Positions 39,381 to 56,524 of a stretch of 64,000 nucleotides of DNA are shown here, piece after piece. Every line of letters begins with the position of its first letter. The first letter of the stretch is position 1. The position numbers and the translations under genes are program-made. Below the pieces are notes generated by a model that saw only the letters and a list, made by a program, of their open reading frames with translations, was not told the origin of the DNA and did no database searches. The DNA is from Candidatus Kaiserbacteria bacterium (GTDB lineage Bacteria > Patescibacteriota > Minisyncoccia > Phycocordibacterales > UBA2100): assembly GCA_963767115.1 (NCBI GenBank), contig CAVYCR010000005.1:25582-89581 (forward strand), read 5' to 3'.

Positions 39381-41249
39381 CTATTGTGCAAAGAGGAAGT
39401 CATTACTTCGCGCTGGCAATGGCTTCACTTGATAGCAAAAACGTCCGTTGCTCTCCCCCGCACAACTCGTCTTGAGGAATTTCCCGCCGTCGAATTGGGC
39501 GTACGGAGTACTGGTGCTCTCGAGATCGGCGCCGAGCGTATAGACAGCACCGGAGAGGGTGTACGGGTAGCTGGTGTTGTCGAGCGGATCGAGCGGCACC
39601 GTCTTGAGGTAGGTCGGCTCAAGCGTTGCGAGCGTGGATGGATAGCCGCCTTCGGCGCCATGATATGACTGCAGCGCGAATTGAATTTGCGAAAGGTCGA
39701 GAAGACGCGTGTTATCACGACTCTCCTGGACCGCTTCTTCGAGACTCTGACCGGTCACATCTTGATATGCGTCGCTGATGGAAATGGTCGAGGTCGGCGC
39801 ATCGATAGTGATGGGCTGATTGATATCGCTCAGGGTGAGATCGGCCGTCACGCGCACCTGCTTGCCCTTAAGGCTCTCCATCGCGTCGGTCGGGACGAGC
39901 CGCAGCGAGCTTTCAAACTTGTGCGGTATGCCGCTTGTCTCCGCCCAGATCGTGACAGTGAGATTGGAGGCAAGATACTTCGCAAGCTGCTCCCCTTCCG
40001 AGCTCTGGAGATATGCGAGCGTCGCCGGGTCGAAGTGCACGGTACTTGATGCTTCGCCGGCGAAGGCCTGCATCGCATCGTTATAAAAGACCGGCAACGC
40101 GGCGGCATTCAGCGTGAGGTCGTACTCATACAACGCCTGGCCGTCTTCTTGCACCAGGACCGGATCAGACGACGACAGAAGGTTGTCTTTTTCCTCGAGC
40201 GTGAGGATCGTCTGCAAGTCTTTTTGGCTTTGCGCTTGCGTCGTGTTTAGTGTTTGTGGAACATCACTGTCAAATGGAAGCATGCTCGCGTACTGCTTCT
40301 GGTCCTGTGGTGTTATTTCTACCCATTGGTTTTTGATGGCAGAAATATTTCCAACAAATCCGGGTATTTTGGTCACGATGCCGTAGTAATTGTCTCCGAC
40401 TTTCTCAAACTGCGCGGCGAGGCTCGCGGTGAGGTCCTCGGAGGAAAGGTCAAACGATATCGATGCCTCGCCATCGGCGCTCGTAGCGGTCTTTTGCGCC
40501 GCGCCGCTCACGTCGAGCGTCGCATCAAAATCAGATGGCACGAGCGCTGTCAAAAACTCCATAGCTTCGAGCTGGGTGCTTGTACTGTCTTGGGGTATCA
40601 CAAGGGCGGTCGCGTCTGGGTCGCGTGCCTGCGTATACACATGCGCTTTGACATCCCACGCACTCGTCTGTACTTGTGAGAGTCCGAGGGCAACACCACT
40701 CAAGACCGCGCCGGTCGTGTAGGGCGGATGCGAGAGAAACGGCAGATAGTGATACGCGTACTCTTCGATGAGCGGTAGTTGATCGGTCTCGTATGCATAC
40801 GCCGCGCCGCCGATAAGCGCGATGAGAAGCAGTGCAATGATGGTCAATAGTATGTTGCGGCCCGTATGCCTCGTGTGCTGCACAGGTATCGAGGTCGCAG
40901 GAGTCGGACGAGTCGATGATGAGACTGCAGAAGTATTGATTGGAACTAGAGGCTGCGCTGCGCTATGCGGGAGTCCTACATCGAGACTTGTGTCTTGTGG
41001 TTGTGGTTGTACCGGTGCCGGTGAAACTACTGGCTTCTCGGAGGGCACCAGTGGCGCCACAGGAGCTTCGGGTGAAGAGCTCATCGCAAGTGCCTGCGCG
41101 ATCATCTCAGGCTGCCAGCCATTCACCGCAAGCGCGGTAGCGATCTGCGCGTCGCTCTCTCCGGCCGCGCGACATGCACGGACATATGCTACCCCGTCTT
41201 GTATCGTTGCCATCTTATGTATAAGTGTGACATCTACATGAAGCGGCAC
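39381..41249 (-). CDS. membrane protein with C-terminal type IV pilin/pseudopilin-like globular module
   Basis: 622 aa (start possibly MATIQDG at 41213) with one TM (ILLTIIALLLIALIGGAAYAY). The C-terminus SRDNTRLLDLSQIQFALQSYHGAEGGYPSTLATLEPTYLKTVPLDPLDNTSYPY matches the pilin-type D..R..DL..I..AL..Y....G.YP pattern. Confidence 0.65.
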   Translation of the reverse strand: MPLHVDVTLIHKMATIQDGVAYVRACRAAGESDAQIATALAVNGWQPEMIAQALAMSSSPEAPVAPLVPSEKPVVSPAPVQPQPQDTSLDVGLPHSAAQPLVPINTSAVSSSTRPTPATSIPVQHTRHTGRNILLTIIALLLIALIGGAAYAYETDQLPLIEEYAYHYLPFLSHPPYTTGAVLSGVALGLSQVQTSAWDVKAHVYTQARDPDATALVIPQDSTSTQLEAMEFLTALVPSDFDATLDVSGAAQKTATSADGEASISFDLSSEDLTASLAAQFEKVGDNYYGIVTKIPGFVGNISAIKNQWVEITPQDQKQYASMLPFDSDVPQTLNTTQAQSQKDLQTILTLEEKDNLLSSSDPVLVQEDGQALYEYDLTLNAAALPVFYNDAMQAFAGEASSTVHFDPATLAYLQSSEGEQLAKYLASNLTVTIWAETSGIPHKFESSLRLVPTDAMESLKGKQVRVTADLTLSDINQPITIDAPTSTISISDAYQDVTGQSLEEAVQESRDNTRLLDLSQIQFALQSYHGAEGGYPSTLATLEPTYLKTVPLDPLDNTSYPYTLSGAVYTLGADLESTSTPYAQFDGGKFLKTSCAGESNGRFCYQVKPLPARSNDFLFAQ

Positions 41250-41703: not shown

Positions 41704-42291
41704 ATGATGAGCTCGATAGTATCTCTCCCCGCCGCCTATAAGGAGCAACTGCGGATCCGCGAAGCGTTGACAGTAGGATTTAGCCGGCAGGTTGAGGGGA
41801 TCGGATACACCACCTTCTTCGACAACCAGCCACGATCGTACTCAGGCCGTATCAATCCCGATATGGTTATCATCGCGGCGGGATCCGGATACCTCGTTGT
41901 GCTTCGGGGTCCCGATACGCTTCTCTTTGAAATACGAGGCATGGTCCCCCAGTATCCTGCCGAGGCCGGCATGATCAAGGGCTTCCAAATACTTGCGTTT
42001 CTCGTTGCCGTGCCCGCGCTAAGCCTCTTTCTCTCGTTGATACTGGGACTGGGCTGGTGGAGCCTTGCCATGGTAGTGCTCGGCTTCATCGGCACCCTCA
42101 TCTACTTCTTCTTGGTGGAGCCGCCTCTGCAGGCCGTACGTGCGGCATCGTACGGAGCGGTCTATGTTTGGAAACAGTCGCATGGTCAAAGAGAAGCACG
42201 CGCGCAGTATCGCGAGATCGTGCGGCTGCTAAGCGCCTGCAATATGCGCGACCTCAAGGAAGTCCACCAGATATTGATCAAATGGATTTAA
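41704..42291 (+). CDS. hypothetical membrane protein
   Basis: 195-aa ORF with two or three central TM helices and a terminator at 42301-42333. Confidence 0.55.
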   Translation: MMSSIVSLPAAYKEQLRIREALTVGFSRQVEGIGYTTFFDNQPRSYSGRINPDMVIIAAGSGYLVVLRGPDTLLFEIRGMVPQYPAEAGMIKGFQILAFLVAVPALSLFLSLILGLGWWSLAMVVLGFIGTLIYFFLVEPPLQAVRAASYGAVYVWKQSHGQREARAQYREIVRLLSACNMRDLKEVHQILIKWI

Positions 42292-42333: not shown

Positions 42334-42462
42334 ACATGTGAAGTCTCCGCCTCTCCAATTCCTCTAATGCGCGACCTCGTAGACGCTGTTGGAACCAGAA
42401 TACGAGGCCACGACGCCTATATCTTTATACCAGATTTGCGCTTAAAAGCCGAACAAGCGCCT

Positions 42463-43290
42463 TTATAAGCCCCTAAACAGCCGTGCAAAGAAGCTCATAG
42501 CAGCTTGCCACCAACACGCGCCAAACCACGTACAGGCTTTAGGAGCGACTACAGGAGCAATGGGCGGAGTAGCTACAGTGCCACCCCTTGAGTCTGTTTG
42601 TATGGTACTGGTAGGAAATGTCTGGGAGGTCGGCGGTTGCTGCGAGGTATATGCACTACTTTTGGAAGATGAGGGCGGTTTGGATGTTGGCTGCTGTGAT
42701 TTAGCAGGTTTGGATGTCGGTATGAGAGTTGGCGGCACAGCTACAGTTGAGACGGTAGTAGTACTTGTCGCCGTAGTGGTGCTGTTTTGATATCCAACTG
42801 CAGATGGTCCACTTATGACGCCTCCTCCACCACCTCCGCTCGATGAGCTGGAGTAAGATGAACTGCCACCCGCTCGCCAAGTCGTCACCACTTCACAATT
42901 GTCGCAATCGAAGGTCATGGTGCCGAAAACATTTTGAGCTACCGTGTGGCCGTGGAAAACGCCGTTGTTGTCTATCGTTACACCCGAGAAGCTAATCCAT
43001 CCCGTGCTGGCACCCCACGCATAGCCGCCAAGAGTGCCGTTACTATTAGTTACTCCACCATTATCAGGCGCAAGGTTTATCCAGCCGAAATTGGCAGACC
43101 AGATATAACCAGTGAGCGCAGTATCGGTTACTGACACATTGCCGCCATTGGCATCCCAATTGACCCACCCACCGTTGTCATTCCATGCATAGTGATTAGT
43201 GGCATCAATCGTGCCGGTCGCGGCGAACACTATAGCAGTGCTCGATAGAAACAGGAAAGCAGCAATAAGGATTAGTAAGTATTTTTTCAT
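42463..43290 (-). CDS. secreted protein with GW(I/V)N repeats and S/T-rich tail
   Basis: Signal peptide, then the repeated GGWVNWDANGG / FGWINLAPDNGG / TGWISFSG motif, followed by a poly-S/G/T/P linker and a hydrophobic C-terminus. Confidence 0.7.
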   Translation of the reverse strand: MKKYLLILIAAFLFLSSTAIVFAATGTIDATNHYAWNDNGGWVNWDANGGNVSVTDTALTGYIWSANFGWINLAPDNGGVTNSNGTLGGYAWGASTGWISFSGVTIDNNGVFHGHTVAQNVFGTMTFDCDNCEVVTTWRAGGSSSYSSSSSGGGGGGVISGPSAVGYQNSTTTATSTTTVSTVAVPPTLIPTSKPAKSQQPTSKPPSSSKSSAYTSQQPPTSQTFPTSTIQTDSRGGTVATPPIAPVVAPKACTWFGACWWQAAMSFFARLFRGL

Positions 43291-43787
43291 TGCTTTGTTG
43301 AAGTACTCTGCACGTTCACGGGGCCTGCGTTGACCACTTGGTGCGTACTCGGGCGAAAGAGCACCGCCTTGCCTGCAGTGGGAAAGAGGAAGAGCACATC
43401 GCCGTTTTGAACATTCACGTAGAAGGGCTGCTGAACTCTAAGCACGGAAGCGTTGGTGACGGTCGCTATTTGTGGCTGTTCTTGTGGCACGATCATGACT
43501 TGCTGTAGTTCTGCGAGAAGCTCAGAGCTTGAGGGTTGTGAGACAGCGTGATGCCAAATAAGCAGACTGATGATCAACAAAATACACACCCCGAGCGTCG
43601 TATATTGGCGACGACGCGTGCCTATAAGCAAACGCAAAATTCGGATATACCACTTGCGAAGCCGAACTCGGAATACAGCCCTGCGCGAAGTGATATGGCT
43701 ATCTGCAACTGCAGAAAGAACAGGTTCTTCGGAAGCAACGGACAGTGTCTTTGCTCTTCGAATTGTCTTTTTCGGGAGATCATCCAT
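43287..43787 (-). CDS. hypothetical single-TM protein
   Basis: 166 aa. Its stop overlaps the downstream gene start by 4 nt, and it lies 6 nt after the giant gene. Confidence 0.55.
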   Translation of the reverse strand: MDDLPKKTIRRAKTLSVASEEPVLSAVADSHITSRRAVFRVRLRKWYIRILRLLIGTRRRQYTTLGVCILLIISLLIWHHAVSQPSSSELLAELQQVMIVPQEQPQIATVTNASVLRVQQPFYVNVQNGDVLFLFPTAGKAVLFRPSTHQVVNAGPVNVQSTSTKQ

Positions 43788-43793
43788 ACAATC

Positions 43794-46700
43794 CTAGTTG
43801 TTCTGTGTTGGGGTAGTCGAAGCGGTATCATCTGCCGATGAAGTGGCGGCGTCTGAGTTGCTATTATCTTCTGAAGTTACAGCCTGGACTATCACCGTGC
43901 GGGTAGAGGTAGATGTGAGGCCGTTAGCATCGGTTACTACATAGTAGATGTGATAAGTGGCCGGGGCACTAGTATCTATCACCGCTTGGCTCATGGGTGT
44001 TGTCCCAACAAAGGTTTGGACGCCGAGGTTGAGGTCAGCCTTAGGGCCAGTAATAGTTGCGCCGAGGTCTGAATAGGTATCGCCGAGGTTAATAGTTGCC
44101 GGATTATCGCCGTTTACTTGAATGATGGGCGGGGTGGTAGAAGCCGAGGTATCGCTGCTTTGTGGGTCTGTATCATCAGAACCGCTCGACTGCTGGCCAC
44201 TTCCTGCAAGCACAGTAGCAAGTTGGTCGCCGGTGACGCATACGCTCGTACCGTCGGATTTTTGGACACAGAGCTTTTGGAAATTGCCGGTGTTTGCGGT
44301 AAGAATGTTCGTTGTAAATGATTGAGCAAAACTGGCAACCGTCTGCTCTAGCGAAGCAATTTCAGTTCCAAGCGCTTGTATAGCTTTCACCATAGGTGCG
44401 ATAAGACCGACATAGTTAAGCGTGAGTGTGCCATTAGGCGTCAGCGCAGTTGCAGAGGTTGTGGAAACAAGCTCGGGGAATATTTGCTGCACCTGCTGCG
44501 CGATAAAGCCGAGGTTTGTGCCATCTTCTTGGTCGAGGCGTGTGTACGAAACAGGATTAAGACCTTCAATATCAGCAAGTGAGGACGAGGCGTCGAGCGA
44601 GAGTATGTCCGTTTTGAGTCGCTGGTCGGATGATTGATAGATAGAGCCAGAGTATGTGGCATTGCCATTATCAAATACAGCAAACACTGTAGTTGAGGCA
44701 CTATTCACGACTGCAAACGGAGAAGTAGACGCAGTGTCGGTGCCCCAGACTGTAAGGCGGCTGTAAGGAGTGGTAGTCCCGATGCCGACGTTGCCGGTTG
44801 AGATGGCGCTCGTCGATGCGAGGCCGGTCGCGAATATTAGGTTGCCTATGTCTAAACTGGCATATGCACTATTAGATAGTGCGCTCAATTGATTACCGAT
44901 GATAATACTATCCTTATCTGTAGTGGGCTGATTGGCATCAGTAGAATTACCAAGTCCTATAATAATATTATTGCTACTGCCGGTTCCCAACTTATAGCCC
45001 GCTCCGCCACCAATTGCGATGTTATTACTCGCTTGGGTATTTTGAAAACACGAATTTGCCCCAAGACACGTATTACCAAAAGCTGTAGTTCCTGCCTGGC
45101 CAGCATTATATCCAACATATACATTTGCATTACCGGATACTTGAACTTGTCCAGCAAATGCACCTACAAAAGTGCCCTGATTCCCAGAAGTATTATTTTT
45201 ACCTGCAAAATAGCCGAGGGAAGTGTTGTAGAAACCCGAAGTAATTGCCGTCAGACCTTGATAACCTACCGCAGTATTAAATCCTGGATTCGATATTGTC
45301 GCACTACTTTTAAGCGCTTGATATCCGAGCGCAGTGTTATATGAAGAGGAGGTTGCATTCTGTAATGCTTGGAACCCAATAGCGATATTTCCCGCAGCAC
45401 TAGTAGAAGCAAGGAGATTTGCTCCCGCACTTTGACCAACAAGAAGAGACGAGTTTGTGGTTGAAGCTTGGAGGATAAGATTGCCGTCGATTTGATAGCC
45501 GCCAGTAGTCCCCAGAGTATTGAGGCCGTTATTGAACGTCTGCAAAACAGTCCATGTGTTGACGGTATTCGTTTGCGCACCACTACCACTAACAAGACAC
45601 GAGCCATTGATCGCAAAACATCCGCCTGTAATGTTGACGCCGTTGGCGATGGTAGTTGAACCAGTATTGTCGATTGAAAATAGGGTTGTTGTCGCTCCGG
45701 GAGTCGAGCTAGCAATTACGAAAAGGGTGGTATTGGTGTCACCGCTATTAGCTGCGATAGAGAATCGTGCGTAAGGCGAACTTGTGCCTATTCCGAATTG
45801 TCCGCTTGAAACTACCGTGGTAGATGCAAGTCCAGAGGCAAATAAAAGATTTCCGATATCAAGGCGCGCATAGGCATTATTTGGAAGAACATTTAATTGA
45901 TCTCCTATTTCAATACTATCTTTTGCCGTTGTGGGATACACATTGGAATTATTACCCCCAAATCCAATGAGTACGTTATAACCGCTGCCTGTCAACAAAT
46001 TATATCCCGCATTGGTGCCTATTACAGTGTTATCACTGCCTTGAGCGTTAGAGTAGCAAGCACCGCTGCCAATACAAACGTTTCCGAACCCAGTCGTATT
46101 TGAGAATCCGGCCTTGGAACCTATAAAAGTGCCACTGGAAGGATTAGTGACGGACGCGCCGGCAAGATAACCAATTGCGGTTATGTTAGCCCCCGTTGTG
46201 TTGATACTAAGAGCCCCATACCCGAAAGCGGCATTGTTGCTTCCAGTGGTGTTTGCCGAAAGTGCTGTGCTACCAAACGAGGTGTTATAGGAAGAAAGTG
46301 ATGCAATCGGTTGGCCGCTAGGGGTTTTTACAGAGCCGACAGAGGATGAATCAATACTGGCGTACAAAGAACTCTCGGCACCATTATCAGACACTGTTAT
46401 CCCCGATCCTACAAGCGGTGATGCGGCCACATAGAGTTGATAATCGTTCGTGCCGATACCTTGAAAATTGAATGACATGCTTCGTCCAGCTTCGATGCGC
46501 AAACCTTGGCCGTATGGACTTCCCGAAGTCTCAGCATTATTAACATTGATGTAATACGGCTGATCGGTGGAACTATCCGCCGTAACATCCAGTGCGGCAT
46601 AACCGAGATACGGGCTGATTAACTGGAGCTGATTGAATGATATTGTGTCGACGAGACCTACAAGCGAAGAATCCCCGATCTGTACAAGATTACCAGGCTC

Positions 46701-48911
46701 TATGCCGGTCTGTTGTCCTTCAACACGAAGATTATTTACATTTATCAACCGGAGAGCGCTTGCACCATTGCTGTGCAGTACAAATCCAGGGCCATTGGGC
46801 GCAAATATATTGACATCCTGAAAGGTAACCTCATTAGTGGCATCGCCGCTAGTTGTATTTGTTGACAGCAAATCAACGCCTGGATGAGTAGCATTACCAC
46901 TATTAAAACAATGCAAGTTTTCAATATATGATTCGCGAATATAGGCTTGCGTGGGAACATTTTTTGTAACCCCCGTTCGGAAGCAGCTCCCGTTCATATG
47001 ATCAACAAAGACGGAATCGATGCTGACGTAATCATCTCTATCAAAAAGCGTGATGGCGTTTTGCGTGTTTGTCGCACTTTGATCACCGACTATATGGAGA
47101 TCCGCGAGTATCGGACCCGCGCCTTGCGAAGAAACAAGCAGGGTTGGGGATCCGTATGGTGCCGGATTATTCGCGCCGCCCCAGGCTTCCGACCAAGAAA
47201 ATACATCGCCGGAAAGCGACGGCGCAGCATAGATAAATGTCTGTTCCGTACCCGCCCCCTTGATGCAACCAGCCACCTTGCTAAATGTGGGTAATGCCGA
47301 TGTTATAAGATAAATACCTCCAGGTGCGTACAGGCAGGTGGGTGCCCCCGCTTTATCCAATGTCGCAACATAATTTATAGCGTTTGACCAAGCATTTGTA
47401 TCATCTGTTCCGTAGGTAAATTGACCACCGGTCACAAAACTCCCGGAGAATGTAGCGCCAGTTCCCGAACCACTTGTTGAGGACTGAGTGAGCGTAGATG
47501 CCGTAGCACTGTAAGTGCCCGGCGTTGTAACGACTGGCAAAAGGACACCCATAACAAGTGAGACTGTTGCGCCTGAGAGTGAACCGCAGCCGGTGACAGG
47601 TTCTGCAGAAAGAGAAGTTGGATTTGCCGAATACTGACCATAATTGGTAAAAGTCCCGATAGAAGTAATAACACCAGAGGTGAGAGTAACATTCATACTG
47701 AATTTACGCTCACCGGAACCAGTTGTTCCAGTCGCTACACAAGAACCACTGCTTGAACCGGTGCTTGTGGTGCCCCCAGTGCCTCCAGATACAAGCGTGG
47801 CGCTCATTACTTTTGTTCTATCAACCGTAACTATTGCAGGGACCGATGCTGTACCTCCCAAGAGAGTAATAGTATCGCCGGGCACATAACTACCCGAGCC
47901 GCTTTGGGCAGTGCTTACAAAAACACTGTAAAGAAAACTGTACGGCACACTTGTGGCTGCATTAGCTCCGAGCGTGACATGGTGAGAGTCAGTAAATCCC
48001 GTTATTGTAGTTTGTAACGACGAGGTACCGCTGCCTGCATAATCAATCCAAATTGTTTTGCCTACATCGGCTGATGTAAAGGTTGCCGAATTGCTCGAAA
48101 AAGCACTCGACCCTTGAGTGATTGTCCCGTCGGAATAGCTGAGAGCATTACCCGCCGCACCAAAGTCTTTGACGCTGATAGTGTCAGAGAGTTTGCTTTG
48201 AACACTTCTGGTGATGGAGGTCGAGGTTGATTGCAAAAATTGCAAGCCCGAGACAACCCCAGATGCGGAGGTTGTGCCGGTGCCGCCATTGGCGATTGAG
48301 AGCGCAGTGCCGAGCGTAAGGCCGCCGGAAAAATATCCATTGCCACCGACCGAGAGAGTTTGTGACGGCGAGCTAGTGCCGATGCCGACATTGCCAGTGG
48401 TATAAAAAATATTTGAAATATTGGTTGTCCACTGTGACCCTACAATGCCGAGTGAGGAGGTGGCGGTAAGCGAGTAGCCACCACTATTATTTCCTACTAA
48501 CACTTGACCGTAAGTCGGCGAAGCTGCGAGGCCCGTACCACCGTTGGCAATACCAAGCACGCCGGTTACGTCGCTTGAAAGATTAACAAGCGCAGTCGTA
48601 ATGACACCTGCTACAGCCTTGAGTATTCCCGTAACATTGCCGATAGCAAGATTACCGGATACCGATACATTTCCTGCGAAGGTCGAGGTGGCGGTAGTCG
48701 AAGTTGCCACAAATGTGCCTGCGGTGTTAGCGACAACAACACAAGTCGGATCAGTCGGGGTGCAGGAAGGGTTAAGTGTTTGTCCGGGCAGATATGAAGC
48801 GAGAGCTGCTGTTGGCAAAAGTAGTAATGCAGCGAGCGTCAAAACGGCCGCCGCGCGTGGAGCTGTAATTTTTATTGAAATAGAGCGGAGCGAAAATATA
48901 TATTCATGCAT
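43794..48911 (-). CDS. giant tail-fibre/tailspike-like surface protein (pectate-lyase-like beta-helix, hep_Hag-like repeats, S74 chaperone-type domain, Ig-like DUF5011-type domain)
   Basis: The start is set at MHEYIFSL... (signal-like AAVLTLAALLLLPTAALA); the ORF extends to 49085. Recognisable segments include IANGGTGLA repeats, SVKDFGAAGN (Pectate_lyase_3-like) and two repeat blocks of about 335 aa (DIGNLLFASGLAST / DIGNLIFATGLAST). It also has SSDQRLKTDI...GFIAQQVQQIFPELV (Peptidase_S74-type) and a C-terminal PPIIQVNGDNPATINLGDTYSDLGAT. Confidence 0.85.
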   Translation of the reverse strand: MHEYIFSLRSISIKITAPRAAAVLTLAALLLLPTAALASYLPGQTLNPSCTPTDPTCVVVANTAGTFVATSTTATSTFAGNVSVSGNLAIGNVTGILKAVAGVITTALVNLSSDVTGVLGIANGGTGLAASPTYGQVLVGNNSGGYSLTATSSLGIVGSQWTTNISNIFYTTGNVGIGTSSPSQTLSVGGNGYFSGGLTLGTALSIANGGTGTTSASGVVSGLQFLQSTSTSITRSVQSKLSDTISVKDFGAAGNALSYSDGTITQGSSAFSSNSATFTSADVGKTIWIDYAGSGTSSLQTTITGFTDSHHVTLGANAATSVPYSFLYSVFVSTAQSGSGSYVPGDTITLLGGTASVPAIVTVDRTKVMSATLVSGGTGGTTSTGSSSGSCVATGTTGSGERKFSMNVTLTSGVITSIGTFTNYGQYSANPTSLSAEPVTGCGSLSGATVSLVMGVLLPVVTTPGTYSATASTLTQSSTSGSGTGATFSGSFVTGGQFTYGTDDTNAWSNAINYVATLDKAGAPTCLYAPGGIYLITSALPTFSKVAGCIKGAGTEQTFIYAAPSLSGDVFSWSEAWGGANNPAPYGSPTLLVSSQGAGPILADLHIVGDQSATNTQNAITLFDRDDYVSIDSVFVDHMNGSCFRTGVTKNVPTQAYIRESYIENLHCFNSGNATHPGVDLLSTNTTSGDATNEVTFQDVNIFAPNGPGFVLHSNGASALRLINVNNLRVEGQQTGIEPGNLVQIGDSSLVGLVDTISFNQLQLISPYLGYAALDVTADSSTDQPYYINVNNAETSGSPYGQGLRIEAGRSMSFNFQGIGTNDYQLYVAASPLVGSGITVSDNGAESSLYASIDSSSVGSVKTPSGQPIASLSSYNTSFGSTALSANTTGSNNAAFGYGALSINTTGANITAIGYLAGASVTNPSSGTFIGSKAGFSNTTGFGNVCIGSGACYSNAQGSDNTVIGTNAGYNLLTGSGYNVLIGFGGNNSNVYPTTAKDSIEIGDQLNVLPNNAYARLDIGNLLFASGLASTTVVSSGQFGIGTSSPYARFSIAANSGDTNTTLFVIASSTPGATTTLFSIDNTGSTTIANGVNITGGCFAINGSCLVSGSGAQTNTVNTWTVLQTFNNGLNTLGTTGGYQIDGNLILQASTTNSSLLVGQSAGANLLASTSAAGNIAIGFQALQNATSSSYNTALGYQALKSSATISNPGFNTAVGYQGLTAITSGFYNTSLGYFAGKNNTSGNQGTFVGAFAGQVQVSGNANVYVGYNAGQAGTTAFGNTCLGANSCFQNTQASNNIAIGGGAGYKLGTGSSNNIIIGLGNSTDANQPTTDKDSIIIGNQLSALSNSAYASLDIGNLIFATGLASTSAISTGNVGIGTTTPYSRLTVWGTDTASTSPFAVVNSASTTVFAVFDNGNATYSGSIYQSSDQRLKTDILSLDASSSLADIEGLNPVSYTRLDQEDGTNLGFIAQQVQQIFPELVSTTSATALTPNGTLTLNYVGLIAPMVKAIQALGTEIASLEQTVASFAQSFTTNILTANTGNFQKLCVQKSDGTSVCVTGDQLATVLAGSGQQSSGSDDTDPQSSDTSASTTPPIIQVNGDNPATINLGDTYSDLGATITGPKADLNLGVQTFVGTTPMSQAVIDTSAPATYHIYYVVTDANGLTSTSTRTVIVQAVTSEDNSNSDAATSSADDTASTTPTQNN

Positions 48912-49204
48912 AGAAACTAAAGAAAAGGAGTGGCTCCGTATAACGGCTCCTACTATCAAATTGTACCTTACCCTGCAGCGCTGTGGGGGGGGTGTTAACA
49001 AGCACGGGGACAAGTATTTTGATGTATTGAAAAAGCCCCTAAGAAGGAGCTCAATAGCCGCCTCAATCGGTGGTGTAGAGAACATGATAGCCCCGAAATG
49101 GGCTACCGTCCAAGACCCTAGCAGAACCCAGTGTTTTGCGAAGGGACCAAACTACCAGACAACTATTCGTTGGCCTTGCGAAGAGCAGAGAAAAAATTTG
49201 GTTG

Positions 49205-49382
49205 CGACGAATTCTCCGGCGGCACGATAGTAAAGTATTATAAATATATTCTGTATTTATACATTATCAATATATCTAGTTAATATATACATATATTTAA
49301 AGCCGATATTGTTATATAGATAATGCAATAATAATATTTATATAGATAATTTTATACCGTGGAGCCGCCGGGGAATTGGTCG
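49205..49382. repeat. 19-bp imperfect inverted repeat flanking an extremely AT-rich core of about 130 bp
   Basis: CGACGAATTCTCCGGCGGC (49205-49223) pairs with GCCGCCGGGGAATTGGTCG (49364-49382) at 17 of 19 positions. The core is full of TATATA/ATATAT runs. Confidence 0.7.
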
Positions 49383-49473
49383 GAAAAGATCCTGCCGTTC
49401 GGTCGCGCAAGCGCATTTACCTTTACAAATGAGGAGATAATGTGTCAGAATGCGAAAAATGACCCCGCGAGGC

Positions 49474-49501
49474 TTGACCACCGTTAGCGGGAGCGTAAAC
49501 T
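49474..49501 (+). promoter_or_regulatory. sigma70-like promoter upstream of the 3-gene cassette
   Basis: TTGACC (49474-49479), a 16-nt spacer, then TAAACT (49496-49501), about 50 nt upstream of the ATG at 49555. Confidence 0.4.
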
Positions 49502-49554
49502 GCTATCAATTATGTACGCATGGCATAATTATAAGCTAATCAATATCCAAACGT

Positions 49555-49956
49555 ATGGCAAAAGATGCAATTCTCACGCGCGTTGAAGAATTGGAAAAGC
49601 GCGTTGAACAGCTCGAAAGGAGCTTGAGTGGACCGATCCCTCGATCGGCGATAACGAAGAAATTATCAGCGAAGGAGTTCCTCATGACAAAGACTGCCAA
49701 GGCAGACACGCAAAAGGTCCTCGCCTTAGGATACTTCCTCGAGCATATGGGTGGTACCCCTTCTTTCAATGTACCTGACCTTGTAGGGGCATTCCGTGCG
49801 GCGAGGGAGAAGCTACCGGCCAACATGAATGACGCCGTCAACAAAAATATTGCGCGCGGCTTTTTCATGGCCGCGGATGCACCAAAAGATGCAAAAAAGG
49901 CTTGGTACCTGACGGCCACCGGTGAGCGATACGTAGAGAATGACATGAATCAATAA
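49555..49956 (+). CDS. cassette gene 1: hypothetical protein (coiled-coil N-terminus, wHTH-like C-terminus)
   Basis: 133 aa: MAKDAILTRVEELEKRVEQLERSL..., ending KKAWYLTATGERYVEN. I recognise no family. Confidence 0.7.
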   Translation: MAKDAILTRVEELEKRVEQLERSLSGPIPRSAITKKLSAKEFLMTKTAKADTQKVLALGYFLEHMGGTPSFNVPDLVGAFRAAREKLPANMNDAVNKNIARGFFMAADAPKDAKKAWYLTATGERYVENDMNQ

Positions 49957-49966
49957 ATTCAAGAAT

Positions 49967-50518
49967 ATGGCAAAAAATATTCAAATGGATGCAATGTCGA
50001 AGATCATCGCGATCTTGACTCCTTTACCCTCTGAGGAGCGAAGTCGCGTTATGAACGCAGCGATGATGCTGCTCGGCGAAGCGTCGCCTAAGTTGGGTGC
50101 CGTGAGTACGGATGATGAAGTGGGGGCCGTATCCAACCTGTCCCCTCGTGCAAAAGCGTGGATGAAGCAAAACTCGGTGACGAACGAGGAGCTGGAGCAG
50201 GTATTCCATATGTCCGAAACCGGTACGGAAGTGATTGCTTCTCACATACCGGGGAAAAACAAGAAGGAACAGACTTACAACGCCTACATCCTCACTGGCA
50301 TCGCACAGTTACTGGCAACAGGTAATCCTTCGTTTCAGGACAAGACCGCTCGCACGCTTTGCGAATCATCAGGTTGTTACGACAGCGCAAATCACTCTGC
50401 GCATCTGAAGGATCGGGGCAACGAATTCACCGGCACGAAGGACAAGGGATGGACCCTTACGGCCCCAGGGCTCAAACGCGGCGCGGAAGTCATAAAAGAG
50501 CTGAATAAATCCGAATGA
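49967..50518 (+). CDS. cassette gene 2: hypothetical protein
   Basis: 183 aa, 10 nt after gene 1, ending KGWTLTAPGLKRGAEVIKEL. Its stop overlaps the gene 3 start (ATGA). Confidence 0.7.
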   Translation: MAKNIQMDAMSKIIAILTPLPSEERSRVMNAAMMLLGEASPKLGAVSTDDEVGAVSNLSPRAKAWMKQNSVTNEELEQVFHMSETGTEVIASHIPGKNKKEQTYNAYILTGIAQLLATGNPSFQDKTARTLCESSGCYDSANHSAHLKDRGNEFTGTKDKGWTLTAPGLKRGAEVIKELNKSE

Positions 50519-51291
50519 TCGACAATACCAAAATACTTGCTGGACTGCCTTCCGGTCTTCGCGATCCCCTCCTTGAGAGCTATAAGGAAATCGGCAGGAA
50601 TTTCCTTGAGCATCGCTGGGAACCTGCCGAGCTTAATGGAGGCAAGTTTTGCGAAGTCGTTTATTCTATCATCGCTGGCAATTTGTCGGGCAAATATCCG
50701 GCACGTCCCTCGAAACCGAAGGATATGCTGAAAGACTGTCGTGCCCTTGAGATGACTCCACCTGACCCGAAGCGTGTCGGTGACCGAAGCCTCCGAATAC
50801 TTATTCCACGCGTTTTACCGGCCCTCTACGAAATACGCAATAACCGAGGCGTCGGTCATGTTGGCGGTGAAGTGGATCCAAACTATATGGATGCGACTGC
50901 TGTGTATACGATGGCCAGCTGGGTGCTGGCAGAACTCGTTCGAGTATTTCACTCTGTCTCGACGAAGGATGCTCAAGACGCGGTGGATAGTCTCGTAGAA
51001 AGAAAGCACCCATTGATCTGGGAGATCGAAGATGTAAAGCGCGTTCTAGACCCTGAAATGCCGAAGTCAGATCAAGCGTTACTCCTGCTCTACTCAGAAC
51101 CCACATGGGTATCCGAGAAAGATCTCTTCGCTTGGGTGGAATATAGCAGTTCAGGAATGTTCAAAAGACGAGTATTGGAAGTCCTGCATACCGCACGTCT
51201 AATTGAATACGACTCAGCAAATGCACGGGTACGCATTTCCCCAAAGGGGGTGATAGATGTGGAGCAGAGATTACTCAAAACAAGGATCTAA
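50515..51291 (+). CDS. cassette gene 3: Abi_C/HEPN-like protein with C-terminal wHTH-like tail
   Basis: 258 aa. The segment LYEIRNNRGVGHVGGEVDPNYMDATAVYTMASWVLAELVRVF (R108..H115, nt 50836-50859) fits the R-x(4-6)-H HEPN / Abi_C RN..G.(A/G)HG pattern. The tail is RRVLEVLHTARLIEYDSANARVRISPKGV. Confidence 0.7.
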   Translation: MIDNTKILAGLPSGLRDPLLESYKEIGRNFLEHRWEPAELNGGKFCEVVYSIIAGNLSGKYPARPSKPKDMLKDCRALEMTPPDPKRVGDRSLRILIPRVLPALYEIRNNRGVGHVGGEVDPNYMDATAVYTMASWVLAELVRVFHSVSTKDAQDAVDSLVERKHPLIWEIEDVKRVLDPEMPKSDQALLLLYSEPTWVSEKDLFAWVEYSSSGMFKRRVLEVLHTARLIEYDSANARVRISPKGVIDVEQRLLKTRI

Positions 51292-51355
51292 AGTTACCAA
51301 CACTGTCCTATCAGTGCCTTGACTACCCCAGCCGTTGCGTCATCCCTTAAGGGGT

Positions 51356-53050
51356 ATGAACAGAGCAGTATTTTACGCCCGAGTAAGCTCGGATTTGCAG
51401 CACAAAGAACGTTCGATCGAGAGCCAGATCGCAGAGCTGAAGAGGCAGATCGAGAAGTCCGGCAGCAAACTGGTCAAAGAGTACGTCGATAACGGGTACA
51501 GCGGAGCATTGCTCGACAGGCCAGCGATGGACCAACTGCGAAAGGATCTGCGGACGAATGTCTTCGACACGATCTACATCTTGAATACTGACCGCATCGC
51601 GCGCGACGTGACGCATCAGAACATCATCGTCGGCGAGATGCTGCGATACAAGAAACAGATCATCATTAACGGCAAAGATTACATTCATAATCCTGAGAAT
51701 AAATTCACGCTTACAGTACTCGGTGCGGTGTCAGAGCTGGAGCGAGCAAAACTGATCGAGCGTACGACGCGTGGCAGACAGCATCGCTTACGACAAGGAA
51801 TATTGCTCGGCAATGGACATCAGCTGTACGGGTACACATACAGCAAGAAGACTCCTACTTCATGGCCTTCGTATGCGATCAATGAGAAAGAGGCCAAGGT
51901 CGTACGATACATTTTCAATACATATGCCGAGGGCGGCGTCGGTATACATACCATCGCAACACAACTTGATCGTATGGGCGTGGAGAAAAGGCGCGGGAGA
52001 AACTGTCTCGAATATTCAGGGGTCGAAGGTATTTTAAATAACGAGACATATACGGGCTTCCGGTACTTCAATACCATGAAGCAAACGCGGGTGCCTTCAG
52101 ATCCAATGTCCAAGGCGAAGCAGGGCAAAATGGAACGTACGCCACGGTCAGAATGGATTGGTATTCCCGTACCCGCGATCATTTCCAAGAAGATATTTGA
52201 AAAGGTCAGAAAACGCCTTGAACACAACCACGCGTGCTGGCGCAATTCAAGACAGCCACAATTACTTTCCAACTTAGTCTGGTGCGGCATGTGCGAGACA
52301 CGCTGCTACGCACTACGACGCTCGTATCAGATAGAGCGAAGCAACGGGACATATAGGTATCGGCGGATCGTATACGTATGCAGATCGAAAAGCGCATCCG
52401 GTCACATTCCTGAGATCGCTGGTCATGCACTAGAAACACTGACCTTCGACATGATACGAGAGACGATGCTGGTGCCGGAAAGACTACATGAGTGCATTGA
52501 CCTATTGCATAAGCGAGCTAATGCGGGAAAACTGGAACAGCAATTACTGCATTTGGAAGAAAGAATACGAGTAATCGCCCAGCAGAAAAAGCGCATTATC
52601 GATCTGTATGCTTCTGGTGATCTCGAACACGAGGAATATATAAAGCGTATCCGCATCTACGATACCGAAACGACGGCCTTGAAGGAAAAACGCGATGGCC
52701 CTGCCAAATATGCTCCCCTGCTACAAAAGCCGGAGCTGATCGAAGCTGGGATCTCAAAGTACTGCCAGATTGTGCAGACGCGATTCAAGCAATGCGCCGA
52801 TTTTGAGACGAAGCGGAAGTTCTTGCAGGAGTATGTGAGCAAGGTTACGTATCATCGAAAGAACAAGGCTACAACAAAGGTGAAGGTATGTGGATCGATT
52901 CCGATACAGATAGGACCGGAAACGGTCGGCGTGGAGTTCACCATCGAACACAACATGGACTGGCACGAAATGATGGCGAGGTCGCCGAAGCAGTCAGAAC
53001 CATCAGTCGGGTATGACTACGTGCATCCATTCTCAAAAATAACGGTATGA
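51356..53050 (+). CDS. large serine recombinase 1
   Basis: Resolvase catalytic N-terminus (AVFYARVSSDLQ...SIESQ), a recombinase domain, a Cys-rich zinc ribbon (CGMCETRCY...YVCRSK) and a coiled coil. An AAGGGG SD precedes the ATG at 51356. Confidence 0.9.
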   Translation: MNRAVFYARVSSDLQHKERSIESQIAELKRQIEKSGSKLVKEYVDNGYSGALLDRPAMDQLRKDLRTNVFDTIYILNTDRIARDVTHQNIIVGEMLRYKKQIIINGKDYIHNPENKFTLTVLGAVSELERAKLIERTTRGRQHRLRQGILLGNGHQLYGYTYSKKTPTSWPSYAINEKEAKVVRYIFNTYAEGGVGIHTIATQLDRMGVEKRRGRNCLEYSGVEGILNNETYTGFRYFNTMKQTRVPSDPMSKAKQGKMERTPRSEWIGIPVPAIISKKIFEKVRKRLEHNHACWRNSRQPQLLSNLVWCGMCETRCYALRRSYQIERSNGTYRYRRIVYVCRSKSASGHIPEIAGHALETLTFDMIRETMLVPERLHECIDLLHKRANAGKLEQQLLHLEERIRVIAQQKKRIIDLYASGDLEHEEYIKRIRIYDTETTALKEKRDGPAKYAPLLQKPELIEAGISKYCQIVQTRFKQCADFETKRKFLQEYVSKVTYHRKNKATTKVKVCGSIPIQIGPETVGVEFTIEHNMDWHEMMARSPKQSEPSVGYDYVHPFSKITV

Positions 53051-54718
53051 AGAAGGCAGTTATCTACGCGAGAGTCAGTACCGATATCCAGCAGAAGGAA
53101 GGCACGATTGAAAGCCAAGTAATTGAACTCAAGCGGCAAGTAGTTGCCGCTGGTGATGTCCTTGTAAAGGAATATATAGACAACGGGTATAGCGGGGCGA
53201 AGTTGGATCGTCCCGCACTCGACCAGATGCGGAAGGATCTTGGCTCGGGGCTTTTCGATACGATCTACTTCCTTAACACAGATCGTATCGCGCGAGATGT
53301 GACCTTTCAAAATATCATCGTCACGGAAATCCTGAGGCACAAGAAACAGATCATCATTAACGGGAAAGATTATATTCATAACCCTGAGAATAAGTTCGAG
53401 CTGACCGTACTGGGTGCAGTTGCAGAACTGGAACGCGCGAAGATGATCGAGCGCAGTTTGCGGGGAAAACAGCATCGGCTCAAACAAGGATTCCTTCTAG
53501 GTCATGGCTACAACATTTACGGATATGACTATTCAAAGCGCGCTTCCGACATCCCTGCGAAGCTGACCGTCAACGAGAAGGAGGCAAAGATCGTACGGTA
53601 CATTTTTGAGAACTTCGCTAAGGGCGAAGCCAGCGTATGGCAGATGACGCGACACCTTGAGAAAAGCGGTATACCTACCAAAACTGGCAAAAAGCTTTGG
53701 AATATCGATGGACTCAAGCGTATGCTCAGAAATCCTACGTATGCGGGTACGAGGTATTTCAATACGAGACGGCTCACGAAGGAGCATGCCAGCCCATTAC
53801 GCGGACTCGAGTACGGCAAGAAGGTATGGAGGCCGCGTTCAGAATGGGTCGGTGTAAAAGTGCCTGCCATCATATCTCAAAAACTCTTCAATCAGGTGCA
53901 AGCAAAAACTGAATACAACAAGATCCACTACTACCATCCCAAAACCAAGCAGCTCCTTTGTAATCTCGTTGAGTGCGGCGAATGCAATTCAAGCTACTAC
54001 GCCTATCAGCGGTACTACCGAGAGAAACGACGCGGTCCGATGCGAGTGCGCCACAAGATCGCGTACTCTTGCAACAAACGGGCCGTAGACAAAATGCATC
54101 ACAAGGATCTGGTAAAGCCATGCCGGAACCCTGAGATCAAAGCTGAGATGTTGGAAACGTGCGTTTTCCGCATGATCGAAAATGTCATGCTCAATCCCGA
54201 AACTCTACGAGCGCACATGGATTTCTTCAATAAGAAACAACGTGCCGATCAATTGAGGCTTGAGGGTCAGCTGAAGAAAATTGATGAGAAGATCCACGCA
54301 ATCGGTGAACAGAAAAAGCGCATGGTCGATGAGTATGCGTCGGGTGATATTTCCCAAGAGGACTATATCGAGAGGAACATCACACATGATCGGACGATAA
54401 ACAAGCTTGGGACGAAAAAGAAAAGATTTAGTCAGTCGCATTCCCCTACTGCATAAAGCAGAGATCGTTGATCTGAACCTACGCCGATATTGCGAAGCAA
54501 TTAAAGCTCGATACGAGCAGTGCGTGGATTTTGATACTAAGCGCAAGTTCCTACTGGACTACATCGGCCAGGTTATATTCGTAAGAGATGCCGTTACTGT
54601 ATACGGATCCGTGCCTATAAGACTAAAGGCGTATGAAGACCCAGAGCAGACGAGTGAAGCGGGTAAATTACAATTCCGAATCGAGGGAAAGATTGATAGG
54701 AGCAAGAAATTAATCTAG
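53047..54718 (+). CDS. large serine recombinase 2 (paralog), one frameshift in an A-run at 54415-54424
   Basis: Its start overlaps the recombinase 1 stop (ATGA). It has AVIYARVSTDIQ and CGECNSSYY...YSCNKR. The C-terminus continues in ORF 54407..54718 (KDLVSRIPLLHKAEIVD...DFDTKRKFL), parallel to the recombinase 1 C-terminus. Confidence 0.85.
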
Positions 54719-54760
54719 TTCGCACATTGTTTGCGTCTTTGTAGTGGGTGTCTAGGTGGC

Positions 54761-55057
54761 TTATAGAGCTTCCTTGTTTTTGCTCATTTTTCTCCTCCTA
54801 TACAAAAGAAAAAGAAGTAGGAGGCCCGCAACAGCGATAAATAGAGTCCCATACCGTATGACCTCATCAGATACTAACCTGATTTGTAGAGGGAAATTAT
54901 ATTGATGAACAAAAAAATCAAAGATGTTTATTAAAAAACCTCCGAGAAAAAGAATCCACCCCCATAAGAAAACACGGATATGCTCACGCCTCCAAATATA
55001 AAATAGGAATATCGCGCAGAGAAGAAATATAATGCTAAAAAATAAATCGGGTATCAT
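54761..55057 (-). CDS. small 3-TM membrane protein (candidate immunity protein for the RHS tip)
   Basis: 98 aa, starting 27 nt downstream of the RHS-CT stop, in AT-rich DNA. Confidence 0.55.
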   Translation of the reverse strand: MIPDLFFSIIFLLCAIFLFYIWRREHIRVFLWGWILFLGGFLINIFDFFVHQYNFPLQIRLVSDEVIRYGTLFIAVAGLLLLFLLYRRRKMSKNKEAL

Positions 55058-55084
55058 AAAGATTTTGATTTTATAATAAATCTA

Positions 55085-55993
55085 TCACGGCCCTTCACTT
55101 GGCGATTGATCATCATAGGGGCCTATCTGCCCAAAGAAAGATCTGTATAGATTTTCAATAACGGCTGCAGCTACACCTGTACCTATAACAGCACTGCCTG
55201 CAGTCGTCAAACGCGACCACGGTATACTATCCAATCCGCCAGATGAAGATTCTGCGGTTTCTGCAGCCTCTCTCAATGCTTGAGATTCTGCCAGTGTAGT
55301 GTCTTCTCCGATTCCTTCGGTTAACGATCCATACTGCCCAATTGTTGTGATAGCCCTTGCAGCACCTTTTGTGGCAATTTGCGCAAGGTAATTTGCGACA
55401 TCACAATCTATTGCACAGTCTAAAGCGACTGACCCAAGAGCAGCATCCCCGACCATTCCGATGCCTGTGCCTGCCCCCAGTATTCCGATAGTGGCCGCCG
55501 CACCCGCCGGAGTATTTCCTCCTCCCTGCGTTACAATACCGTTATTCCTGCTCTGGTTGTAATTATAGGACGTCCATGACGTATTAAAAAGATTCGAAGG
55601 ACTTGGATGGGAGCCGCTATTGGACTGAGCGGCCGATGGGTTCTGCAGGTACTGGTATGTGCTAAAGGTGCTACAGCAGACGCTTTCATTGGTGCCGTTG
55701 TAATCGTATACAAGTCCTTGGCCTGGAATAATCGCACTTGTAAGACCGGTCGGATCTTCTTTAATTATTGGATTGTCTTGTGAGTAGGAGTAGGCGTTAA
55801 GACTTTGTGGATCTGTTAGAATTTGTAGCTTTGGAATGCCTAGAAATAGAGGATCTTCAGATAAGAACTGGCCTTGGGAACTATTGTAATAACGCTTCTG
55901 AAGGTAGTTTAAAGAGCTTCCGGCATCATAGTACTGACCGATAAAAGTCATTGCCGAGAAACACGATGAAGAAGTCGTCGAGCGGACAACCAT
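55085..55993 (-). pseudogene. orphan RHS repeat-associated core plus C-terminal toxin tip (5'-truncated)
   Basis: FIGQYYDAGSSLNYLQKRYYNSSQGQFLSEDP...NAYSYSQDNPIIKEDPTGL is an RHS core ending in DPxGL. All upstream YD repeats are absent. The CT of about 215 aa has Gly-zipper-like stretches (GAAATIGILGAGTGIGMVG; GSAVIGTGVAAAVI). Confidence 0.7.
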
Positions 55994-56489
55994 TTACGAT
56001 TCCCAACAGAAGGCCCTGAGTGACACGCAGAAACAGCTCGATAATCTTACTCAGATGCGCCTACGCGAAATGATCGACGATGATGAGTATTTGCGCGAGA
56101 AGACTCGGCTCAAGAATGAAATGGCCGTAATGAAGACAAAGGTGCAAGGTACAGAGCAACGGGCCGAGAATTGGCTCAAGCTTACCGAACAGACTTTCGA
56201 CTTTGCCTGCTACGCGCACAAAGCGTTCCTTTTTGGCGACGCGCAAACGAAGCGAGAGATACTTTCAACCATCGTTGGTTTGAACTGCACAATGCGCGAT
56301 CACGTTCTTAACATTCAAGCCGTGGAATGGCTTGTACCGATCAAAGATAAGTATCCTGCCCTCGAAGCTAGGATAAAGGCGTTTGAACCAGAGAATTATG
56401 GCTCTCCGGAATGGGAAAAGGCGGCTTTCGCCGCCTTCAGTCCCGATGTGCGCGGCCGACCGGACTTGAACCGGCAACCTCTCGCGTGA
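55945..56489 (+). pseudogene. 3' remnant of a third large serine recombinase, running into tRNA-Asp
   Basis: The frame reads ...EEVVERTTIYDSQQKALSDTQKQLDNLTQMRLREMIDDDEYLREKTRLKNEM...FLFGDAQTKREILSTIVGLNCTMRDHVL, which is the coiled-coil and C-terminal region only. No catalytic domain is present. Confidence 0.6.
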
Positions 56490-56524
56490 CAGGCGAGTGC
56501 TCTAACCAGTTGAGCTACGGCCGC
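56451..56524 (-). tRNA. tRNA-Asp (anticodon GUC)
   Basis: Hand-folded: GCGGCCG acceptor, anticodon arm CTCGC-CTGTCAC-GCGAG, T arm GCCGG-TTCAAGT-CCGGT, discriminator G, no encoded CCA. Confidence 0.85.

Follow-up and report, generated by a model that had tools for sequence, protein, structure and literature searches.

The window examined here is a stretch of 64,000 nucleotides from Candidatus Kaiserbacteria contig CAVYCR010000005.1. It contains two adjacent genes for large serine recombinases (LSRs), Rec1 and Rec2, followed on the opposite strand by a candidate immunity gene and the C-terminal tip of an RHS toxin, and then by the remnant of a third recombinase, Rec3, that reads into a tRNA-Asp gene. 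On balance, the locus probably consists of two nested mobile-element relics, i.e., a tRNA-Asp island left by a Rec3-type element and, stranded inside it, a Rec1-Rec2-immunity-RHS tip module from a family with a putative tip-replacing mechanism. The module comprises the following features.

51356-53050, + strand: Rec1, LSR of 564 aa, open reading frame (ORF) intact
53047-54718, + strand: Rec2, LSR paralogous to Rec1, with one extra A within the run at 54415-54424
54761-55057, - strand: immunity candidate of 98 aa with three predicted membrane helices, assigned by hydropathy and by its position between Rec2 and the RHS tip
55085-55945, - strand: RHS core-end and C-terminal toxin tip (TIGR03696), aligning with the RHS tips of relatives
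55943-55947, no strand: junction where RHS-tip homology (- strand) meets Rec3 homology (+ strand) with no spacer, the homology to the related loci L004 and L005 starting at 55947

The recombinase pair and its RHS partner

The Rec1 ORF is open as far back as a TTG at 51335, and its stop overlaps the start of Rec2 in the sequence ATGA at 53047-53050, with the two genes lying head to tail. Both proteins contain the Pfam Resolvase and Recombinase domains (96 and 89 bits for the resolvase catalytic domain PF00239; 64 bits for the Recombinase domain PF07508), carry the N-terminal motifs YARVS(S/T)D.Q and IESQ..ELKRQ, and are 51% identical over 459 aa. The identity and the domains confirm the first-pass annotation of this sequence, which had proposed two head-to-tail LSR paralogues with shared N-terminal motifs and an ATGA overlap. 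The zinc ribbon Zn_ribbon_recom (PF13408), which is present in many homologues, scored 22-23 bits in Rec1 and Rec2, slightly under the cutoff of 25.3 bits. Among solved structures, the closest are those of the TP901-1 N-terminal domain, SprA/YokA and A118.

The Rec2 reading frame stops at 54456, shortly after an A5-G-A4 run at 54415-54424, and the +1 frame from 54407 to 54718 aligns with Rec1 residues 452-542. Removal of one A in silico restored a Rec2 of 556 aa that is collinear with homologues of 555-563 aa, which bears out the single frameshift that had been placed in this run. The frameshift is also found in the deposited protein P0088 (469 aa). An independent Logan assembly (L112, from ERR11630394) is 99.97% identical to the window over 44689-54419 and ends exactly at 54419, the last A of the A5; the run length is thus ambiguous at the level of the reads, and the break hints that the reads disagree on it.

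The RHS tip scored 53.1 bits against the TIGR03696 model Rhs_assc_core (cutoff 32.5). Its ORF is open to an ATG at 55993 (55085-55993, 302 aa) and contains the motifs FIGQYYD at 55945-55925, RYYNSSQGQFLSEDP at 55894-55850 and DPTGL at 55756-55742, the last followed by a 218-aa tail. No RHS body (YD-repeat shell) is present in the 64-kb window, and besides the RHS core, searches with PADLOC, Pfam and NCBIfam showed nothing in the tail of the tip or in the immunity candidate. The 98-aa ORF is a putative immunity gene; in the related locus L001, a Barstar gene occupies the same place.

A search for Rec1 homologues returned many contigs with two homologues each, and scans of genomes and metagenomes added about 100 related loci. 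By profile search, pairs were recovered from Doudnabacteria, Anderseniibacteriota, Saccharibacteria, Falkowbacteria and other Patescibacteria. The 4-nt overlap occurs in every called tandem pair (L001, L002/L003, L030, L031 and L032). In a neighbour-joining tree, Rec1 and Rec2 form separate clades with parallel topologies and the single-recombinase loci form a third, and the motifs YARVS[ST] and DRIAR are kept in both the Rec1 and the Rec2 clades. Judged from these sequences, Rec1 and Rec2 are a genuine, anciently conserved and co-diverging two-gene module. It should be noted that recombinases of this family are broken elsewhere as well, by a split of Rec2 in L031 (3540-5267), an in-frame stop in L017 (1563-3239) and a truncation in L025 (11644-12975), and decay after integration seems to be common.

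The pair had been likened to the paired Ccr-type recombinases. This likeness stands for the layout, i.e., a tandem pair with a 4-nt overlap and co-diverging clades, but not for family membership. Although CcrB was the best NCBIfam match of both proteins, the scores of 110 and 131 bits are far below the cutoff of 900, as are the scores of 99 and 85 bits against CcrC (cutoff also 900). Thus, Rec1 and Rec2 are Ccr-like in layout without being members of the Ccr family. CcrA and CcrB of the staphylococcal cassette chromosome SCCmec are likewise two adjacent, co-transcribed, paralogous LSRs on an integrative element that is neither phage nor conjugative. Their target, however, is the 3' end of rlmH/orfX, whereas Rec1 and Rec2 sit at the RHS core-end, and rlmH was absent from the Pfam labels of the related loci with gene calls. 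Rec1 and Rec2 are further set apart from Ccr by the 4-nt extent of the gene overlap itself and by the toxin tip and immunity gene that they carry. Given their co-divergence and their intact catalytic motifs, the two paralogues probably act together as CcrA and CcrB do, and one may speculate by the same analogy that they bind two unlike half-sites.

The RHS tip beside the pair is a feature of the family. Thirteen paired loci extend for 1.7 kb or more downstream, and in 11 of them the opposite strand carries an RHS core-end at 1.16-2.09 kb beyond the stop of Rec2; one to three small ORFs, the Barstar gene of L001 among them, are found between Rec2 and the core-end. Ten single-recombinase loci have the same layout. 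The core-end is usually the C-terminus of an SpvB/FG-GAP/YD-shell protein of 2000-2600 aa, and the tip is joined to a YD-repeat shell in L001, L002, L010, L012, L014, L016, L025, L026 and L090. We hold with high confidence that the association of these recombinases with RHS tips is robust at the level of the family.

Four loci (L001, L010, L014 and L025) have a second tip, co-oriented with the first, that lies beyond the cargo, 7.6-9.1 kb upstream of Rec1, and in L010 a C-terminal fragment of a further Rec2-like gene (125-637) lies beyond the displaced tip, which suggests serial insertions into one RHS gene. Main and displaced tips point in one and the same direction throughout the paired loci, such that recombination between them would excise the intervening DNA rather than invert it. 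This bears on whether the pair could be invertases or shufflon-type enzymes that flip tip cassettes in place, or the region a prophage, both of which we regard as hardly credible. Intragenic site-specific recombination that exchanges a C-terminal domain is known from Mu Gin, P1 Cin, e14 Pin and the R64 shufflon, and it is well established that the serine invertases Gin, Cin and Pin swap the C-terminal ends of tail fibres. Here, however, inverted flanking sites are not what the co-oriented tips offer, and the proteins are full-length LSRs with recombinase and putative zinc-ribbon regions rather than invertases of about 190 aa. A prophage would fit the 1763-aa protein of the window, which carries a Peptidase_S74 chaperone domain of a kind often seen in phage tail spikes; but that protein recurs in a chromosomal context, phage structural and replication genes are absent, and no member of the recombinase family was found in 2.9 million IMG/VR viral contigs, where the best matches are at most 31% identical.

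The cargo of most related loci includes a fusion of ParB_N and N6_N4 methyltransferase domains, to which L003 adds the two genes of a cyclic-oligonucleotide-based anti-phage signalling system (CBASS; CD-NTase and Cap15) and a LexA/S24-type regulator. These cargo genes were noted at L003 449-2668, at L001 7227-8591 and at equivalent positions in most of the related loci. Both the fusion and the CBASS pair are missing from the window copy.

Junction positions at the core-end and a candidate route of tip replacement

Several observations indicate that the tip travels with the recombinases. L002 and L003, from two samples, show 100% identity that begins in the cargo, spans Rec1, Rec2 and the immunity gene and reaches into the tip; they part inside the sequence encoding TGHEYDASTG, where L002 continues into an RHS body and L003 into a 121-aa signal-peptide stub beside the CBASS genes. 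L011 has two such stub-plus-tip ORFs. In most loci, the GC content of the immunity gene and tip is nearer to that of the recombinases than to that of the RHS body; in the window, it is 0.437, compared to 0.484 for the recombinases and 0.56 for the host. The window is itself a case in point, in that the tip and immunity gene are still attached to the pair despite the lack of an RHS gene.

Where tips join sequence other than an RHS body, they do so at only two positions across all loci. Ten such junctions, that of the window included, fall directly after the F/Y codon that precedes (T/I)G(H/Q)xYD (type A), and six junctions in the single-recombinase clade fall directly before (L/M)xARY. Ahead of these junctions lies a conserved stub arm of about 24 nt (GGWGMRGGTGWMGGBCAKCGSATT; peptide GAGV.Q..F) that is shared across phyla, and the sequence upstream of the arm is unrelated between loci.

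Taken together, these features slightly favour the reading that the loci represent a family of elements, mainly of the Candidate Phyla Radiation (CPR), in which one LSR or a co-evolving pair integrates into the coding sequence of a giant RHS gene at a fixed core-end codon and thereby delivers a new tip and immunity gene. In this family, the element is made up of variable cargo, one or two LSRs, an immunity gene and an RHS C-terminal tip. Its attachment site would lie within coding sequence, at the boundary of stub and tip, at the F/Y codon before (T/I)G(H/Q)xYD of the RHS core-end. This site would recombine with the same motif at the boundary of body and resident tip in a chromosomal giant RHS gene, after which the RHS shell would carry the incoming tip as a fusion, with the old tip and immunity gene displaced to the far end, behind the short conserved stub arm. 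The sequences themselves show the anatomy of the loci, the limits of the tRNA-Asp island, the conserved linkage and the discrete junction positions; that the recombinases catalyse the exchange, and that both of a pair are needed for it, is what we infer from this arrangement.

Ordinary homologous recombination at the core-end could instead swap the tips by C-terminal displacement with orphan cassettes, and the recombinases would then only move or stabilise an element lodged in RHS genes, or use another site. We consider this unlikely, but several observations speak for it or weigh against recombinase-mediated replacement. The stub arm is similar to the final repeat of the RHS body, and homologous recombination at the core-end could thus yield similar junctions; moreover, about 110 nt of core-end are conserved between tips. 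Related recombinases can carry unrelated toxin and immunity genes, as in L001 and L009, where the recombinases are 78% identical and homology stops 37 nt after Rec2; the favoured model therefore needs an extra cassette exchange. Neither an empty RHS site nor a proven excised circle was found among the related loci, and the apparent circle of L003 may equally be an integrated copy, as described below. Recombinase-mediated replacement is further weakened by L019 and L022, which depart from the layout, and by the window itself, where the tip adjoins something other than an RHS gene and the module has a left end that was not located. The literature, too, credits recombination with standalone cassettes for tip diversity, and the only recombinases mentioned in a comprehensive survey of polymorphic toxins are XerC/D, beside polyimmunity loci. 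Homologous recombination does not, however, account readily for junctions that are confined to two discrete codon positions and track the recombinase clades instead of being scattered, nor for a stub arm that is conserved across phyla when the coding sequence upstream of it is unrelated. It likewise sits poorly with the fixed spacing and orientation of recombinases and tip in 11 of the 13 paired loci, with the window junction, which has a non-homologous partner and nevertheless lies exactly at the type A position, and with the lack of room for, or trace of, an attachment arm between Rec2 and the immunity gene.

An attachment site in this last gap was considered and rejected, as it spans only 12-43 nt and is devoid of arm sequence. 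L003 was also rejected as proof of an excised circle, since its 13-nt terminal overlap and shared 30-mer fit a repeat in the assembly graph equally well; the apparent circle may equally be an integrated element whose flanking 30-nt repeat was collapsed in the k = 31 assembly. A homologue search with the L003 stub peptide for proteins of attP or attL form gave no candidates.

Recombinase-mediated tip replacement has to be set against what is known of Rhs and contact-dependent inhibition (CDI) toxins. C-terminal displacement with orphan toxin-immunity cassettes is well known from Enterobacteria (Jackson 2009, Poole 2011, Koskiniemi 2014). A main RHS gene with displaced tip-immunity cassettes behind it that keep a short core homology, and the arrival of new tips by horizontal transfer, are common to those loci and to this family (PMC3150448). 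In Rhs/CDI displacement, however, the swap has been ascribed to homologous recombination, with no dedicated recombinase travelling with the cassette, whereas the tips described here are linked to one or two LSRs and have junctions at fixed codons. In the literature searched, we found no report that links serine recombinases to Rhs tip exchange. The gain of Rhs tips has so far been explained by homologous recombination with orphan cassettes, which leaves the arrival of the cassettes themselves unexplained. If the reading given here is true, a recombinase-borne tip that enters at the core-end would be a concrete and testable mechanism of delivery.

Intragenic site-specific recombination at a boundary of constant and variable sequence, by which a surface or attack protein receives another C-terminal domain, would be shared with Gin, Cin, Pin and the shufflon. 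Those are small invertases (or, for the shufflon, a tyrosine recombinase) that flip resident segments, unlike the LSRs found here, which are located on a transferable element with the direct-repeat geometry of integration and excision. Phage and developmental LSRs, such as those of A118 and TP901-1, SprA of SPbeta and XisF, have the same domain order as Rec1 and Rec2, and some of them integrate within protein-coding genes. Rec1 and Rec2 differ from these in being paired, in lacking a phage context and in having a hypervariable toxin gene as their apparent target; in addition, insertion here would give that gene a functionally different 3' end instead of restoring or inactivating it. C-terminal domain switching and intragenic attachment sites are both already established, and we rate recombinase-linked replacement of Rhs tips as a variant of them rather than a new category. 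If true, it would still amount to a dedicated, site-specific and horizontally transferable means of toxin-tip replacement, in which serine integrases edit the 3' end of a gene in place, and it would contribute naturally occurring attachment sites within coding sequence and, next to CcrAB, another natural system of two recombinases. For CPR bacteria, with their small genomes and epibiotic lifestyle, it would point to active toxin warfare and to gene flow across phyla. Such a mechanism would be of interest for the study of polymorphic toxins, of serine integrases and of CPR biology.

The tRNA-Asp island and the window copy of the module

The older element is recorded by the following features.

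55947-56489, + strand: Rec3 body remnant (coiled-coil and C-terminal region), the last 11 codons of which are antisense tRNA
42367-42468, + strand: detached C-terminal tail of Rec3, 33 codons, at the left end of the island (translation MRDLVDAVGTRIRGHDAYIFIPDL)
42368-42373, no strand: left copy of the direct repeat TGCGCG, the attachment-site core of the old tRNA-Asp element
56449-56454, no strand: right copy of TGCGCG, at the 3' end of tRNA-Asp
56450-56524, - strand: tRNA-Asp (GTC), target of the old Rec3 element (ARAGORN; Rfam tRNA model, 71.7 bits)

The frame of the Rec3 remnant is open from 55938, and its stop at 56489 is located 40 nt within the tRNA-Asp gene, in agreement with the earlier description of a third recombinase remnant that reads into the tRNA-Asp 3' end. 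All homologues of the remnant are short (99-309 aa), with the catalytic domain missing in 22 of 22 database homologues. A longer relative, P0121 (309 aa), has a zinc ribbon and matches XisF positions 263-426. By these resemblances, the remnant is derived from an LSR. The first-pass annotation had envisaged an alignment of all three recombinases, which gave no common family, as Rec3 has no significant similarity to Rec1 and was not matched by the Rec1 profile.

Toward its end, the remnant switches from ...SPDVR to GRPDLNRQPLA, the latter being antisense tRNA. The tail found at 42367-42468 aligns with the natural C-termini of the Rec3-type proteins P0132 (...RPDVRALRDDVGTAIRESDIAIRIPTLSLV), P0135 and P0140, none of which ends in tRNA-antisense sequence, and when body and tail are joined across the shared TGCGCG the frame is kept. 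The 67-nt segment 42368-42434 is conserved in L004 and L005, 1.3-2.3 kb upstream of their Rec3 fragments, where the counterparts of the tail are L004 191-261 and L005 7651-7712. In these two relatives (L004 and L005/L006), the Rec3 fragment runs into tRNA-Asp as well; the TGCGCG pair also flanks the island of L004, and the left copy of L005 is GGCGCG, a 5/6 match. Because the same split and repeat occur in two relatives with other island genes, the attachment site of Rec3 would have lain inside its own gene, and integration would have left the gene body at the tRNA end and the tail at the far end, with TGCGCG beside each. From this sequence comparison, we conclude that a Rec3-type element integrated at the tRNA-Asp 3' end via an attachment site that lay within the recombinase gene of the element, some 27 codons short of the stop codon. 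The repeat is only 6 nt long, but it is backed by the split ORF.

The island extends over 42368-56454 (14.08 kb), and not over the 49.2-56.45 kb that had been put forward for comparison with relatives, flanking direct repeats having been sought in vain; the TGCGCG copies are such repeats, and they place the limits at 42.37 and 56.45 kb. A general repeat search of the window gave chance-level pairs only. In the relatives, the islands are 2.2 kb (L004) and 2.7 kb (L005) and neither holds Rec1 or Rec2: that of L004 contains a phosphoribosyltransferase-like gene, and that of L005 (7718-9426) contains an RVT_1 reverse transcriptase of 335 aa and a 234-aa ORF. The comparison with relatives beside tRNA-Asp that had been proposed thus showed variable island contents; an empty tRNA-Asp site was not found, as all of the relatives (L004 and L005/L006, two of them independent) carry scars.

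Before segment 42368-42434 was recognised as the Rec3 tail, it had been considered as an RNA, for which there was no Rfam match even at E = 1 and no tRNA call, and as a group II intron domain V or the start of a LAGLIDADG gene, which were dropped with the identification. An exact look-up of the left-flank protein (41704-42291) for other strains returned no record. In L004 (2434-2645, - strand), a group I intron some 210 nt long (Rfam RF00028; 48.8 bits, gathering score 50, E = 2e-11) splits tRNA-Asp within the anticodon loop, and the tRNA-Asp of the window is intronless.

One property of Rec3 fits poorly with a simple old fossil and so counts against the view of this element as a mere relic. 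Compared to L004 1884-2386 and L005 9878-10380, the fragment 55947-56449 has proportions of nonsynonymous differences (pN) of 0.11-0.21 and of synonymous differences (pS) of 0.72-0.81 (0.11 and 0.72 with L004), and its dN/dS is about 0.05. The fragment may be maintained as a small protein in its own right, or recent independent integrations may lie behind this signature of strong purifying selection.

Attachment sites inside genes are known from SSV-type integrases and from cluster G mycobacteriophages, which show integration-dependent immunity. The Rec3 element has in common with both an attachment site inside an ORF, in this case that of its own recombinase. SSV-type integrases differ in being tyrosine recombinases that are split near the middle, and in the mycobacteriophages truncation affects the repressor gene, whereas the LSR Rec3 loses only its tail and gains 11 tRNA-antisense codons. 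Integration thus swaps the C-terminal tail of the recombinase, which suggests a built-in difference between the free and the integrated states of the enzyme.

The first-pass annotation had regarded the whole locus as a tRNA-Asp-linked island with repeated integration at one tRNA-proximal site. The island is there, but it was founded by Rec3, and it is very improbable that the Rec1/Rec2 element itself targets tRNA-Asp and that the locus records repeated integrations. The pair does lie within the island and adjoins a recombinase remnant, as such targeting would have it. Among 20 related loci, however, none has a tRNA within 10 kb, and the constant neighbour of the pair is an RHS toxin tip, such that repeated integration at the tRNA site is not the explanation. 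Rec3 belongs to a different family, the islands of the relatives are devoid of Rec1 and Rec2, and the window has a single pair of tRNA-derived repeats, with neither a second copy of the tRNA-Asp 3' half nor any further tRNA-Asp fragment.

The junction at 55943-55947 connects the two relics. The F codon of the tip motif occupies 55945-55943 on the - strand, Rec3 homology starts at 55947, and the Rec3 ORFs of L004 and L005 extend 55 to 111 or more codons further upstream than that of the window. The tip module thus truncated Rec3 exactly at a type A junction, and the Rec1/Rec2 pair is nested inside, and truncates, an older and unrelated tRNA-targeting element. Recombination at a pseudo-site, or a recombinase-mediated deletion of an RHS body, may explain how the tip came to abut Rec3. 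No stub arm was found in the window with the DNA pattern or with six-frame peptide patterns. The left limit of the module falls somewhere between 42.47 and 51.3 kb, an AT-rich stretch at 49209-49377 being one candidate. With a frameshifted Rec2, which most likely renders it immobile, no RHS body, no stub arm and a tip that abuts a truncated Rec3, the window copy is probably dead. Both elements in the window are decayed; the biology of the window itself is accordingly modest, and the copies are ordinary in themselves.

Other genes in and beside the island

Two further groups of genes are located within the island.

42463-49085, - strand: three leftward genes for a 275-aa secreted protein, a 166-aa protein and a 1763-aa surface protein (Pfam)
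49555-51291, + strand: three co-directional ORFs of 133, 183 and 258 aa upstream of Rec1 (ORF listing)

The 133-, 183- and 258-aa ORFs gave nothing credible in Pfam, PADLOC or NCBIfam, the only match being a sub-threshold one of the 133-aa ORF to HSBP1, and they have no homologue in the cargo of the related loci. Between the two divergent gene sets, an inverted repeat (GAATTCTCCGGCGGC / GCCGCCGGGGAATT) at 49209-49377 brackets a very AT-rich stretch of 140 bp, which could represent either a promoter region or the boundary of an old element.

The leftward genes may be cargo of the island or have been inserted later; their GC content is 0.489, compared to about 0.56 for the host. The 1763-aa surface protein contains Peptidase_S74 and Ig-like domains in Pfam. 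We had considered the 275-aa ORF (42463-43290) as a stub of the element, with ...ARLF joining IGQYYD as a candidate left junction, but this is refuted: the protein is complete, aligns end to end with homologues of 274-287 aa and belongs to a very large family, with 3011 matches in a family search. A cassette of the giant S74/Ig-like gene (43794-49085 in the window) followed by a secreted-protein gene of about 275 aa recurs in the Patescibacteria genome L159 (6117-10825), among housekeeping genes. Just outside the island, a 622-aa ORF at 39381-41249 (- strand) has a weak match to RepB_primase_C (E = 6e-4, below the cutoff), and it may be another mobile-element gene.

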